Shown piece after piece: positions 9,462 through 27,049 of a DNA stretch of 27,049 bases. The stretch lies in contig JAJBTL010000284.1 of assembly GCA_020860865.1 (NCBI GenBank), positions 1 to 27,049 of the forward strand, read 5' to 3'. Position 1 is the stretch's first letter. The number at the start of each line of letters is the position of its first letter. The notes under the pieces were generated by a model. It worked only from the letters and a program-made list of their open reading frames with translations. It made no database searches and was not told the origin of the DNA. The DNA comes from Planctomycetota bacterium. GTDB taxonomy: Bacteria > Planctomycetota > SZUA-567. Position numbers and translations under genes: made by a program.

Positions 9462-11620
9462 ATGACCACCCTCGAACAACGCATCGCCGCCAAACTGCCC
9501 GGCGACGACACCGGCATCGCCATCCGGAAATCCCTCTGCACCATCTGCGACCCCCTCACCCAATGCGGCCTCGACTGCTATGTCAAGGACGGCCGGGTCA
9601 TCAAGGTCGAAGGGAGCGACGAAAACCCGTTCAACCGTGGCGCCCTTTGTTCCAAAGGCGCCGCCACCCGTCAGTACCTCTACCACGAAAACCGGCTGAA
9701 AACCCCGCTCCGCCGGGTCGGACCGCGCGGCTCCGACCGGTTCGAACCGATGTCGTGGGACGATGCCCTGGGCGAAATCGCCGAAAAGCTCCTCGCCGCC
9801 AAGCGGGACTTCGGCCCCGAGTCCGTCGTTTTCTATGCCGGGTATACGAAGTATTTCCGCCCGTACCTCATCCGCCTCGCCCATGTCTTCGGCACGCCGA
9901 ACTACTGTTCCGAGTCGAGCACCTGCAACATGGCCACCGGCATGGCCCAGCGCCTCGTCTTCGGCACCCCCGGCGCTCCCGACCTCGCGAACACGGACTG
10001 CCTCCTCGTCTGGAGTTCGAACCCGTTCTACACCGGCCACGGCCGGGCCCAGATGATCCAGAAACGCCTCGACAGCGGAATGAAAATGATCGTCGTCGAT
10101 CCCCGCATCACCCCGACCACCGCCCGGGCCGACATCCACCTCCAGCTTCGGCCGGGGACGGACGGCGCCCTCGCCTTGGCGATGGCCAATGTCATCATTA
10201 GTGAAAACCTCTACGATCGCGACTTTGTCGACAACTACACCCACGGCTTCCAGGCCTACCGGGACTATGTCCAGGCCTTTACCCCGGAAGAAGGCGAGCG
10301 CCTCACCGGCGTTCCGGCCGGGAAAATCCGCGCCGCCGCCCGCCTCTTCGCCGGAGCGAAATCGGCCTGCGTCCAGCCGAGCGCCAGCCCGGTCGTCCAC
10401 CACACGAACGGCGTCCAGAATTCCCGCGCCATGTTCATGCTTGTCGCCCTGACCGGGAACTACGACGTCCCCGGCGGCAACCGGGCCGAACCGCCCAGTT
10501 ACCTTTATGTCGGCGCCGGCTTCCAGACCCGGGAGCACCAGTTCGAAAACCCGGTCCCCATCACCAGCCTGCCGCCCCGCATCGGGTCGGAACGGTTCCC
10601 GGTCTGGATGGAGACGGCGTCCCCCGAGGCCAGGCCATGGCCCTCCCGGACCAGCTCCGGACCGGACAACCCTATCCTCTGAAGGCCCTCGTCGGCTTTG
10701 GCATGAACTACCGGATGTGGCCGGATTCGGAAGGGTTCAAGGAAAGCCTGGACAACCTCGACCTTGTCGTCAACACCGACATCTTCATGACAGACACCTG
10801 CCGCCACGCCGACATCGTCCTCCCGGCCTGCACGTCCCTCGAACGGATGGAGCTCCGCGCCTACGGCCCCCGTTACGTCATGCTCAGTCAGCCGGTCATC
10901 CCGGCCCTGTACGAGTCGAAATCCGCCGTCGACATGATTTTCGAACTGGCGAAGCGGATTTGCCCGGAAGACGACCTGTTCGCCAAAGGGTACGAAGGCT
11001 GCATCGACTGGATACTCGAGCCAAGCGGCATCACCGTCTCTGAACTAAAAAAGCATCCGGGCGGCATGCCGGTCCCGCATCCGCTGCCGGTGAAGGACCG
11101 GAAGTACGAGGGCGGCGCCGCCACGCCGAGCGGGAAGATTGAATTCCAGTCCACCGTCCTCGAAAAGTACGGGGAAAAGCCCGGATTCGAATCGCTCCCG
11201 GTCTACACCCCGCCCCGGAACAGCCCGGACGGCAACCCGGATCTGGCCCGGGACTACCCGCTTGTCCTGAACGCCGGATCTCGGCTCCCCATGTTCATTC
11301 ACAGCCGGGCCAATCACCTGACCTGGACCCAGAACCTCAGGCCGAACCATCCGGCCGCCGACATCCACCCGGACGACGCCATCCGCCACGGCATCCGCCA
11401 GGACGACGCCATCCGCCTCGCGACGCCCCACGGCGCCATCCAGGTCAAGGCGAACCTCACCCGCATGGTGCTGCCGGGCGTTGTCCACATGTATCACGGT
11501 TCCAGCCTGGCCGACGCGAACAGCCTCTTCGACAAGGACTACCTGGACCCGCTGTCCGGCTTCCCCGGCTACAAGTCGGCCCTGTGCCGTATTGAAAAAA
11601 TCAAGGAGGACCAGGCATGA
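9462..11620 (+). CDS. molybdopterin (bis-MGD, DMSO reductase superfamily) oxidoreductase catalytic subunit, cytoplasmic; -1 frameshift at ~10630 (~719 aa repaired)
   Basis: N-terminal C-x2-C-x5-C-x27-C cluster (CTICDPLTQC...LCSKG), RLKTPLRR, ESSTC, VVDPRITPT, LRPGTDGALALA, TGNYDVPGG. The second frame carries DIFMTDTCRHADIVLPA and the C-terminal IHPDDA..., VVHMYHG. Adding one C gives E-A-Q-A-M-A-L-P across the junction. No twin-arginine signal. Confidence 0.9.
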
Positions 11621-22978: not shown

Positions 22979-23979
22979 ATGAAACGAAAAGCGCTCATCA
23001 TCGGCGGCACCGGCACCATCAGCCTCGCCACCGCCCGGCTCCTGGCCGAACGGGACGAATGGGATCTCTACATTCTCAATCGCGGCAGCCGGGTCGAGGT
23101 GCTGCCGGAAGGCGTCCCGCTCCTCCAAGCTGACATCGCGGACGAGGACCGCGTCCAGGATCTCCTCGGCCCGCACCATTTCGACGTCGTCGTCGATTTC
23201 ATCACCTACAAGCCGGACCAGGCCGAACGCGCCGTCCGCCTGTTCTCCGGCCGCTGTTACCAGTACATCTTCGTGTCCAGTTGCGCCACCTACGAAAAAC
23301 CGGTCAAGCACCTGCCGATCCGTGAAGACACGCCGCAGAAAAACCCATTCTGGCAATACGCCCGCGATAAAATCGATTGCGAAAACGTCTTCCTGGACGC
23401 CTACCGCCGGGACGAACTGCCCCTCACCATCGTCCGCCCGAGCCACACCTATGACAACCGGAACATCCCGGTCGCCGTCCGTGGCGCCAACAGGTCGTGG
23501 CAGGTCGTCTGCCGGGCCAGGCAGCAAAACCGGTCATCATCCACGGCGACGGCAACACCTTCTGGACCCTGCCCCACGCCGCCGATTTCGCCGTCGGCAT
23601 GGCCGGCCTCATGGGGAACCCGGGCGCCCTCGGCGAAGCGGTCAACCTCGTCTCCGACGATGTCATGACCTGGAACGAAATCCACCAGCACCTCGGCCGC
23701 GCCCTCGGCCTCGAACTGTGCACCGTCCATATCGCTTCGGGCACGCTGGCCAGGCACAACGAGGAATTGTACGGTTCCCTCCTTGGCGACAAGGCTCACA
23801 ACCTCTATTTCGACAACTCGAAACTGCGTCGCCTGGTGCCCGAGTTCCAGACCCGCATCCGCTTCGCCCACGCGGTCCGGGACATAATCCGAACAATGGA
23901 CGCCGACCCGACGCTCCAGCGCGAAGATCCCGAGTTCGACGCCTGGTGCGACGCCATGTGCGACCGTTACGCGACATAA
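22979..23979 (+). CDS. NAD-dependent epimerase/dehydratase (extended/atypical SDR); -1 frameshift at ~23512-23527 (~333 aa repaired)
   Basis: LIIGGTGTIS, YILNRG, YIFVSS, YARDK, IVRPSHTY. The second frame carries KPVIIHGDG..WT, LMGNP.ALGEAV, GDKAH..YFDNSK. RBS GGGAG. Confidence 0.88.
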
Positions 23980-23994
23980 TTCCGGTGTGTATTG

Positions 23995-24026
23995 AAACCC
24001 GCAAAGCGCCGTGCCTTGCGGGTTTT
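23995..24026 (+). terminator. probably bidirectional intrinsic terminator
   Basis: AAACCCGCAA-11 nt-TTGCGGGTTTT, 15 bp after the epimerase stop. Confidence 0.7.
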
Positions 24027-24041
24027 ACATAAAATCCTGGC

Positions 24042-24071
24042 CTTATAGTCCGGCATATACGTGAATGTCAA
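24042..24071 (-). promoter_or_regulatory. leftward sigma70-type promoter candidate with no downstream gene
   Basis: Minus strand TTGACA (24071-24066), 18 bp, TATAAG (24047-24042). Confidence 0.45.
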
Positions 24072-24103
24072 CCTCATGAAGTCGGAAACGGTGTACTTTT
24101 TTC

Positions 24104-24132
24104 TTGATTCCGGTTAAAAACTGTAGTACTAT
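24104..24132 (+). promoter_or_regulatory. rightward sigma70-type promoter candidate upstream of the inverted-repeat segment
   Basis: TTGATT (24104-24109), 17 bp, TACTAT (24127-24132). Confidence 0.55.
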
Positions 24133-24176
24133 ACGTAAAGTGCCGATGTAGTAAGTAGATTGCGTCAAGAATAGGG

Positions 24177-24343
24177 GCAACATAAGCCCTATTATACTCA
24201 CATGCTGTTAATCGTAGTCATGCCTTGGGGTTAACCAACCACACGATTGGTCACGCACCCCCCCTCCTCCGCTCTCGACTGATCTCGAACGGTCCTCCAG
24301 TCTCGGCCAACGCAACATGCTCTGATAATAGGGCTTATGATGC
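24177..24343. repeat. 19-bp inverted repeats flanking 129 bp; candidate invertible DNA switch
   Basis: Left GCAACATAAGCCCTATTAT (24177-24195). Right ATAATAGGGCTTATGATGC (24325-24343), whose reverse complement is GCATCATAAGCCCTATTAT. 18/19 identical, with a 15-bp perfect core. Confidence 0.8.
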
Positions 24344-24366
24344 GTTTGGAAGAAATGGAGAAGAGA

Positions 24367-27049
24367 ATGGGGAAGAACCGCAGAACAACATGGCGAGCAT
24401 GGTTGTTGCTTGTCTGTATACTGGTTCCGTTCACCGCGCAACACGCAGCCGCGGCGAACCGGGAGGGATGGAGCGAGGATTTTCAATACGGATATGAGCA
24501 TTATAGGTACCTCGTCAGTGATTCTCAGCAGGGCATCACTGAAACGAGTAAAATATTCAGTGCACCTGCACCAGCGCCGGGCGAGGTGAACGGTCGACAG
24601 TATTATTACATAATTGGGACGGAAACTCCTGGACAGGATTGGGAAAAAAGCGCGCCCGCTCCCTGGTACCGCGTTGAAGGTGATGTGACCCTGACCAACT
24701 CAACATACGACCAAGGCTCTGCCTGGGCGTATGTAAGAATTTATGACACAGAAGTCACAATCACCGGTTCTTTAAATCTGGCCCATGCGTTTGATTCCCT
24801 GACCACCATTCCTTTTTCACAGCAGCACTTCTTTCACGTCATGGGTAACAACTTTACAGTCGAAAACGATATAAACATTGGAAGCTCGGCGTCGATGGAT
24901 TTGAGTTCAGGTGCTCCATTCCTTGGAGACATCCCTGCTGATTTGGAGGCCGTTGTAGGCGGTACGCTGAATATCGCCTCGGGCGGTCTTTTAAACTCCG
25001 TCAGCGCCGAACGAACAACAGCCAACATAACCACCGGGTCGCTGGTGATGAACGGGAAGGACAACACCGGAACTACCGGCAACGAATATAGTTATTACTC
25101 CCATATCTGGATGAATAATGGAACGGGCAGTTACTCCGAAAACGGCACGTTTGCCTTTGAAGTTATCAACGACGCTGTAATCGATCACGGTTATATAGAG
25201 ATCAATACAGAGGTAGGCTCGTTTACCGTGGGCGGCAACACCACGATGACCAACAGCGTCTTGAGAGTTGGTACCCTCATTGTACAGGATTCAAATGCGG
25301 CCTATGATTTCGATCTTTCCTTTGGAGGCGACCTCTCCCTGACCGCAAGTAAAATTTCCAGTAACAATAAGGAATTCTCCTTTACGGTTGGTGGCGCGAT
25401 GACCCTCGCGGACGAGTCCGATATCGATTTTCGTCAACTCGTCGAAGACTTCACCGTCGGCGGCGATGTGTCCCTCACCAACCAGTCGGAACTGTACCTG
25501 CGGGGCACCGATTACAACATCATGATCGGTGGTGACATGAGCCTGGACGCCTCGAAGTTCGACGCCATTGCCGACGCGATGACCATCGACGGCGGACTCT
25601 CGCTCCTGAACAATTCGGAGTTCAAGCTGGAAGGCGACCTGACTGTCAATGGCACATTGACCATAAGCGGCGATTCCAAATTCTCCGGCATAACCAGCGA
25701 CAGCACCCTTACCTTCCGGGACGACGTCACGGTCACGGATACCACCTGGAATCTCGAGGGAACCGTCGTCATCGCCGATGATGCGGGAGTGGCGAAGAAT
25801 ATCTATTTGACCGGCGCCAGCATTCTCGCGAACGGTCCACAGTATTACTCAACCTTCCAATCCCTGACCGCCGATACGGTGTTTATTCAGGACGCTTCAA
25901 GGTTGGACGTTTGGAGAGACTTTGACGCGGAAAACACCAGCTTCGTCTTTGACACCACGGCGTACAACTCGCTGAACTCCAACGTGACGATGAACGATCT
26001 CGAAATCAAGAATGGCACCATCGTCTTCGCAGGCGATACGTCCACCATTACCGGCGACACCGTTATCGGCGGAGCGCAGTCCACAGAGGCAATCCTCACC
26101 AACCATTCCTATCAGGAGTAACTGGTCTTTAACGGCGATGTCACGGTCAAGGACAATGGTTTCCTCCGCTTGAAAAACGACGATGGATGGGGTTCCTTGT
26201 ATAACGCGGCGTCCTTCGCCAACGGCCTGACCCTGGACGGCGGCGCCATCCAGGCCCTGGACAACTACAGCTACCTGACCGCCGCAGCCGGTAAGCAACT
26301 GACCATCGGCGCTTCGGATAACAGCCGGATTCTCCTGACCAGTGAACTAACGTATTCGTCCAACCCGATAGACCTTGGCGTCCGTATCGACATGCCCATC
26401 GTCTTCACCGCGAACAGCGGCACCCTGACCGCCGATTACTCCCTTCAGTACGACAATCCGGGCGTCCTCGAAATTTGGGCCGACAGCCTCGTCATGGACG
26501 GCGGCGAATTTTACATCAACGAAGACATCGACCTCGTCATCGACAAGGGCATCACCGTCAATTCCGGCGCCAAGCTGTTCAGTCAGGCCCTTTACGTCGG
26601 TGAAGACCTGGTGGTGAATAGCGGCGGCGTCATCGGCACCCGTGACCGGGCCCTGAACCAGGCGCGTTTTTCCGCCAACGGCAGCATCCTCTTCAAGAGC
26701 GGCAGCTCCCTCATGATCGGCACCGCCGGCGCGGCCGGCGACCGGCTGGGACAGGTGGCGCTCGGGACCAACGCGTCCTTCGAACAGGGCTTCAAGGTCG
26801 CCTTGAGTATCGAAGCGGAAGATGTCGCCCGGGCCACCGAGGTCGGCGACCTTACCGCCGCCTCGCCCAAGGTGGTGGACGAACTTGCCAGCGGCCTCGG
26901 CGACACCCTGACCAACCTCGTGCACGAAACAGTCGCCGGCAAGTACAACTTCGCCTACGACGACACCATCGCCGGCGGCGCCATCTATTACACCGGCTTC
27001 GGCGAGTCTGGAGAAGATCCAGATCCGGGTCCAGGCCCCGGTCCCGGCC
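24367..27049 (+). CDS. large secreted beta-helix protein (autotransporter passenger/adhesin-like), 3' end beyond the window; in-frame TAA at 26119-26121
   Basis: Signal peptide MGKNRRTTWRAWLLLVCILVPFTAQHAAA behind GGAG, then G/S/T/N/D-rich beta-strand repeats. After the TAA the same frame stays open for 309 codons (LVFNGDVTVKDNG...YTGFGESGEDPDPGPGPGP). No beta-barrel lies in the window, so the autotransporter call is inferred. Confidence 0.7.

Follow-up and report, generated by a model that had tools for sequence, protein, structure and literature searches.

The locus described here raises the question of whether a short stretch of intergenic DNA, bracketed by inverted repeats directly ahead of a gene for a putative secreted surface protein, is a switch that a recombinase can turn over, an insertion that is fixed or mobile, or a structure that acts in the RNA leader of the gene. 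The window, i.e. the whole stretch of DNA analysed (27,049 nt), is contig C284 of the G000 assembly (456 contigs, 3.56 Mb, 76% complete, 60.7% G+C). Our preferred reading, to which we assign a probability of about three in four on comparative sequence evidence, is that the leader of that gene holds a site-specific recombination switch (an inverton), in which positions 24196–24324 would invert. Support for flipping comes through related elements; inversion at C284 itself, the enzyme and the ON/OFF read-out are inferred.

The inverted repeat and its surroundings

An inverted-repeat scan identified two 19-nt arms (24177–24195 and 24325–24343) that are 95% complementary, have a single A/A mismatch and are separated by 129 nt; a gap of 23 nt lies between the right arm and the ATG at 24367. 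The geometry reported in the earlier note (a 19-bp repeat with one mismatch, enclosing 129 bp and ending 23 nt before the start codon) was thus recovered in full. No other inverted repeat of such quality is present in the 27-kb window. A comparable pair occurred in 1 of 200 Markov-shuffled windows (mean 0.02 per window), and a chance origin of the C284 repeat is excluded. The locus shows the arrangement by which invertons are recognised, namely an inverted-repeat pair bounding a short intergenic segment that adjoins a gene start.

Upstream of the repeat, an ORF with a match to the Pfam Epimerase family is followed by its intrinsic terminator (23995..24025, plus strand), which consists of an inverted repeat with a terminator-like site at 24009–24021 and then a T-rich tail. 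This terminator precedes the surface-protein gene, transcription of which must therefore begin downstream of it. The promoter previously proposed at 24104–24132 (plus strand), outside the switch, can be read as TTGATT, 17 nt and TACTAT, but at 8/12 it is a weak candidate and lies below the 9/12 threshold at which a promoter scan of 23900–24420 returned no promoter-like site. The distal (left) dif-like core site (24175..24202, minus strand) comprises the inner arm, ATAA, the centre TAGGGC, TTATG and the outer arm TTGCCC, and the gene-proximal (right) site (24318..24345, plus strand) comprises TGCTCTG, ATAA, the same centre, TTATG and the outer arm ATGCGT. Between the arms lies the 129-nt segment proposed to be invertible (24196..24324, plus strand), which has 48 C and 25 G on the gene strand and a sequence unique in G000. 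The surface-protein gene has its Shine-Dalgarno motif (GGAG) and start codon (ATG) at 24357..24369 (plus strand). A 23-nt tandem direct repeat (24348–24393, 74% identity) covers this ribosome-binding site together with the opening codons of the ORF.

The putatively switched gene (24367..26121, plus strand) is a 584-aa ORF with an N-terminal signal peptide. It has no Pfam match and no paralogue in G000, an exact-protein look-up with two alternative starts gave no match in public data, and no near-identical relatives of the proteins flanking the C284 switch were found there. The ORF is closed by an in-frame TAA at 26119–26121, after which the same frame stays open to the end of the window (∼310 codons) and encodes the same kind of repetitive, beta-helix-like sequence. 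The TAA could reflect a nonsense mutation (a pseudogene), a sequencing error or read-through. Since the stop interrupts the ORF, the C284 locus could be decaying, and the switched gene may be broken.

A family of paired sites with likeness to dif

A search with the repeat core identified five inverted pairs in G000, i.e. the C284 pair and pairs on C414, C149, C333 and C388, with inter-arm lengths of 306, 130, 139 and 146 nt, respectively. A relaxed arm motif gave 12 matches in this genome, ten of them within the five pairs, compared with two for a control pattern. ATAA-N6-TTAT sites number 46 in G000, and eight of them combine, within 800 nt of each other, into four pairs whose centres are perfectly complementary, compared with none in a reversed-genome control. 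The interiors of the G000 loci show no BLAST-level cross-match with one another. G046, from another genus of the same family, has at least seven pairs, three like those of G000 and four that form a second type, the interiors of which measure 155–157 nt, and the congener G007 has an orthologue of the C414 pair in which the 6-bp centre and the orientation are unchanged. The set considered below thus comprises 13 lineage loci with 26 sites (five loci in G000, seven in G046 and one in G007).

The elements sit 23–160 nt upstream of their genes. The C414 neighbour encodes a classical autotransporter with PF03797 and PATR domains, the C388 neighbour encodes a PATR-repeat protein, and the C333 neighbour is an operon headed by a glucose-1-phosphate cytidylyltransferase gene (rfbF-type); at C284 the neighbour is the signal-peptide ORF of the window. 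A protein search with the rfbF-like protein beside the C333 switch returned no relative above 57% identity, and the G007 synteny partner of the C284 locus has neither the switch nor the gene. The earlier note had suggested searching the genome for further copies of the repeat near surface-protein and recombinase genes; the additional inverted pairs do lie at surface-protein, polysaccharide or similar genes, and none is near a recombinase. A scan of the phylum gave nothing new; with four of the five G000 loci missed by its own pattern, it says little.

Every arm has a dyad of its own, in the order outer arm, ATAA, six bases, TTAT and inner arm, a layout which, as read here, is that of a tyrosine-recombinase core site. 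The 6-bp centres are asymmetric and are identical within all 13 pairs, including C284, where both arms have TAGGGC. All five G000 centres differ from one another, whereas two pairs of G046 loci share a centre (CTTTAA in C213 and C264, TTACGT in C237 and C248), so that recombination between loci would be possible there, unlike in G000. The imperfect symmetry that had been noticed to extend inward from the C284 arms (CATGyTG) is partially present at that locus but is not a feature of the family.

The dif sites of E. coli and B. subtilis have an ATAA-N6-TTATGT core (PMC3025954), which is common to the arms described here. We derived a family dif consensus, GTCCGATAA-TGTATG-TTATGTTGCGTT, the pattern of which was found in 14 of 32 genomes, including eight of the nine high-quality ones, with one control match overall. 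The 14 genomes have one match each, except for G043, which has two; the candidates in the family genomes are L229–L242 (e.g. G046:C267:12665-12682). The dif site of G000 itself was not found in its 76% complete assembly, and a candidate on C410 was dropped, since it is not conserved. The outer arms of the 26 inverton sites are TTATGTTGCG-like and agree with the right arm of the family dif at a mean of 10 of 12 positions; at C284 the values are 11/12 for the right site and 9/12 for the left. Agreement of the inner arms with the left arm of dif averages 7.2/11 and is weak at C284 (7/11 right, 4/11 left), a point that counts against a C284 switch. The second G046 type reads TTCCTATAA where dif reads GTCCGATAA. 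A solitary dif-like site in G007 (L217 1570–1583, G007:C151) has the centre TTAAAG that is also found in two switches of G046. It lacks a neighbouring partner arm and could represent either a remnant or a site of the attachment type.

Orientation, cargo and the predicted OFF state

A metagenome scan with a two-arm pattern returned three true members. At the termite-gut locus L175 (2348–2533) the interior is perfectly palindromic, whereas L215 (1734–1919), an independent assembly of the same locus, has a normal interior between flanks that are identical at 1729 of 1733 and 366 of 366 positions. The L175 interior is reproduced exactly by joining the initial 83 nt of the L215 interior to the final 67 nt of its reverse complement, and together the two assemblies carry both junction types at the gene-proximal site. 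The L175 palindrome is likely to be an assembly artefact of a population of mixed orientation. Relative to the secreted-protein gene downstream, the L215 terminator runs antisense, opposite to the G000 copies. Both orientations are also seen within G046, where the C213 interior can be aligned with that of C264 only after reverse complementation (119/157), although both have the downstream gene on the same side, and where the terminator is antisense in C202 and C264 and sense in C213 and C236. With perfect repeats, an element inserted either way round would give the same picture, and the G046 evidence is therefore supportive rather than decisive.

A further member, L166, lies on a Firmicute-like metagenomic contig (48% G+C), between a PF00589 tyrosine recombinase gene (277 aa) and a gene for a 2312-aa FctA/VWA adhesin; this compact module, noted at 10052–11066, is made up of the recombinase gene, a 177-bp switch and the adhesin gene. 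Both of its arms are fully symmetric GCAACATAA sites, and its orientation is the same in three assemblies. With dif-like sites in multiple copies at autotransporter and polysaccharide genes, both orientations among relatives and a recombinase-adjacent member, the central proposal of the earlier note, i.e. a short invertible segment acted on by a recombinase encoded elsewhere and phase-varying a surface-protein gene, is well supported at the level of the family. Searches for sequencing runs behind G000 and G046, in which flipped junctions might be seen directly, listed none.

The five G000 elements, the three first-found G046 elements and the G007 orthologue all have one orientation relative to the gene, which fits OFF-biased switches but also fits fixed elements. 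On the latter explanation, the C284 element is a fixed, non-inverting relic or a mobile mini-module (dif-module- or MITE-like) with inverted Xer sites, inserted upstream of genes and acting at most as a static terminator or insulator. Besides the like orientation of all G000 copies relative to their genes, such an explanation can draw on G046 copies in which the arms and even the centres are alike despite unrelated flanks, suggesting that the element itself has spread, on the mobility of which Acinetobacter dif modules with inverted Xer sites are capable (PMC9947245, PMC13141974), and on the solitary G007 site, with its centre of two G046 loci. We nevertheless regard it as unlikely: the centres, although mostly locus specific, never differ within a pair, an argument for ongoing exchange or for selection on each pair, every copy is close to a gene start, and the termite-gut locus has both junction types between identical flanks. 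The G000 interiors are unique without cross-match and no target-site duplications were seen at the ends; together with the five differing G000 centres, these observations rule against a MITE.

The cargo of the elements is strand-asymmetric. The ratio of C to G on the gene strand is 1.7–2.4 in all eight first-found elements (five in G000 and three in G046), and six of the eight carry a hairpin and T-run on the C-rich strand. These terminators were confirmed by scan at C388 and C333 and identified by reading at C149 and in the three first-found G046 elements; all four second-type G046 elements also carry one. The hairpins act one way only, because no T-run follows them on the opposite strand. 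C284 and C414 have no T-run terminator (a terminator scan of 24196–24324 found none on either strand) and keep CCUCC-type tracts; this difference from most paralogues also counts against a switch at C284. The C284 tract (24256..24270, plus strand) is a predicted anti-Shine-Dalgarno element, which pairs with the ribosome-binding region in the minimum free energy (MFE) fold, and it could conceivably double as a Rho-loading tract. Promoter-like sites upstream of the element are present at C333 (10/12) and C414 (9/12).

Flipping the segment in silico raises the mean predicted unpaired probability from the Shine-Dalgarno motif to the start codon at all four loci folded, from 0.29 to 0.82 at C284, from 0.23 to 0.65 at C414, from 0.22 to 0.52 at C388 and from 0.35 to 0.45 at G046-C225. 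These folding predictions suggest that C284 is now probably in the OFF (silent) orientation. The same state had been proposed in the earlier note, and that part is probably right, but for other reasons than those given there: in this orientation the terminator of the paralogues is in the sense direction and the ribosome-binding site is predicted to be masked. Silencing would then operate via termination in most copies, via masking of the ribosome-binding site and, possibly, via Rho loading on a C-rich untranslated leader.

An invertible promoter within the segment is compatible with our preferred explanation, a recombination switch. The earlier note had proposed that the base just inside each repeat sets a −10 hexamer at the repeat junction, which faces away from the gene now and would face it after a flip. 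The named hexamers exist (GATAAT at 24324–24329 on the plus strand, TATAAT at 24196–24191 on the minus strand), and flipped C284 would read TATAAT at the proximal junction. With a simple sigma-70 model applied in both orientations to 11 elements, the consensus of which may not be that of this lineage, the best score is higher in the flipped than in the native state at C284 (6.7 versus 3.1), C414 (12.7 versus 7.8) and L166 (12.7 versus 4.8, with TGATATAAT). The flipped state is also preferred at C333 and L164, but the native state is preferred at C388, G046-C225, G046-C248 and L215, so that the scores are inconsistent across the family. Moreover, C149 has TATAAT in the orientation in which C284 has GATAAT, several loci have GATAAC both ways, and the −35 element at C284 is poor, with a 19-nt spacer. 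The contrast between the two hexamers is thus specific to C284, and the family does not support it as the mechanism; we consider an invertible promoter possible but doubtful. An internal promoter is likely at L166, where the terminator is in the sense direction and the other strand carries TGATATAAT, and where an extended −10 element faces away from the adhesin gene, but it is not the common denominator of the family.

The arms could alternatively act as RNA, by forming a long-range stem in the mRNA leader in the manner of a riboswitch or attenuator. They could indeed pair in RNA, and the centres co-vary between loci in a way that would preserve the stem. However, Rfam searches at gathering and E-value thresholds gave no covariance-model match, and the MFE fold of the native leader has no long-range arm stem, its z-score being only −1.74. 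The arm cores have no G-U pairs, as had been pointed out for C284 and as is true family-wide, the core mismatches being A-A, A-C and A-G. The internal dyad of each arm matches dif, for which there is no RNA rationale, and in most paralogues transcription would seldom reach the 3′ arm, as a sense-strand terminator stands between it and the 5′ arm. We regard an RNA element as very improbable.

If C284 is a recombination switch, as we favor, an Xer-family tyrosine recombinase would exchange strands inside the 6-bp centres and so flip the 129 nt; candidates for the enzyme are the host XerC/XerD and a paralogue missing from the assembly. As the segment now lies, the CCUCC tract would pair with the ribosome-binding site and the C-rich untranslated leader could load Rho, probably leaving the gene OFF, and after a flip the tract would become G-rich and the ribosome-binding site would be freed. 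Since most paralogues carry an intrinsic terminator on the same strand, flipping would remove a transcription block from them.

The candidate recombinase and known switches

Profile searches of G000 gave six matches to PF00589 and none to PF00239 (serine recombinase). The six comprise one Xer gene (C368), three integrases of ∼540 aa and two apparently broken genes. No recombinase gene was found near any of the 13 lineage loci, and no tyrosine invertase gene lies within 5 kb, either in the window or at the other loci. Two Xer genes are present in each relative, compared with one assembled in G000 (76% complete), and within this lineage it is these Xer proteins that the L166 invertase matches best. 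A search for a recombinase confined to element-bearing genomes found none; the Xer pair and the large integrases were both rejected as element-specific enzymes, as both also occur in G019, in which narrower patterns found no element. The ∼540-aa recombinases form a family with a shared N-terminus on short contigs (C259, C138 and C55 in G000; C88, C178, C105, C52 and others in G046), which probably belongs to integrative elements.

The match of the sites to the dif arms makes the host XerC/XerD a serious candidate for the enzyme, and an unassembled Xer paralogue is equally possible. We tentatively raise the fuller proposal, which we think has the odds against it, that XerC/XerD serve as the invertase for a set of dif-mimic switches (at least five in G000, seven in G046) without a dedicated invertase, most of these switches being insulated from each other and from dif by a centre of their own, and each having a one-way terminator and/or an anti-Shine-Dalgarno cassette.

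The E. coli fimS element, which is inverted by FimB and FimE, is a tyrosine-recombinase inverton that likewise controls a surface structure, but it carries its promoter internally, has 9-bp repeats and lies adjacent to its dedicated recombinases. The closest working likeness is cwpV of C. difficile, also a leader switch of a surface-protein gene, in which imperfect 21-bp repeats recognised by the tyrosine recombinase RecV flank 195 bp. Its promoter lies beyond the repeats, the OFF orientation alone produces an intrinsic terminator, and the gene for RecV is at another locus (PMC2784873). Most paralogues here similarly have a terminator in the predicted OFF orientation only. In cwpV, however, the terminator forms at the repeat junction, whereas the paralogues here hold a complete hairpin and T-run inside the segment and C284 holds none; furthermore, the sites here are dif-like and the host is a diderm with autotransporters. 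The flgB flagellar switch of C. difficile has a Rho-dependent OFF state and is controlled after initiation by the orientation of a leader segment, and a C-rich, rut-type logic has been proposed for it (PMC7446863). The elements here may resemble it, a possible role for Rho being suggested by a gene strand in which C outnumbers G 1.7- to 2.4-fold.

In the PhaseFinderDC survey, Clostridia inverton group 139, with tyrosine invertase group 35, precedes adhesin or fibre genes (PMC11892184). L166 is like this group in its layout of recombinase, switch and adhesin, whereas the invertase that is adjacent in group 139 is not adjacent at any of the 13 lineage loci. Xer-type invertases are known from Mollicutes, i.e. 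Xer1 of Mycoplasma agalactiae at vpma and XerC of Ureaplasma parvum at mba/UU172 (PMC2268961, PMC3599477). These systems share short inverted sites with ours and would also share phase-variable inversion by an Xer-type enzyme, but there the inversions switch between gene copies or occur in tiny genomes, whereas here there are many small regulatory cassettes, with centres of their own and the arms of the host dif. The pdif modules of Acinetobacter plasmids have inverted XerC/XerD sites and are rearranged, including by inversion, by the host Xer enzymes (PMC9947245, PMC13141974); they are gene-carrying plasmid modules, in contrast to the 130- to 320-bp chromosomal, non-coding cassettes at gene starts described here.

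Invertons as such are well known. The unusual feature here is the combination of arms that copy the host dif, no invertase gene at any of 13 loci and a cargo of terminator and C-rich tract rather than a clear promoter, a cargo that recalls the synthetic “transcriptor” design in a natural form. In lineages that have received little study, phase-variable genes could be sought by a simple sequence rule, namely inverted ATAA-N6-TTATGTTGC sites whose centres match. If the host Xer proteins flip these switches, enzymes of dimer resolution would gain a second, regulatory job, and the largely locus-specific centres would show how a chromosome can hold many recombination sites without being scrambled. 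Should this reading of XerC/XerD be true, the recombination machinery of cell division would run the phase variation of autotransporters and surface polysaccharides in an uncultured diderm lineage.
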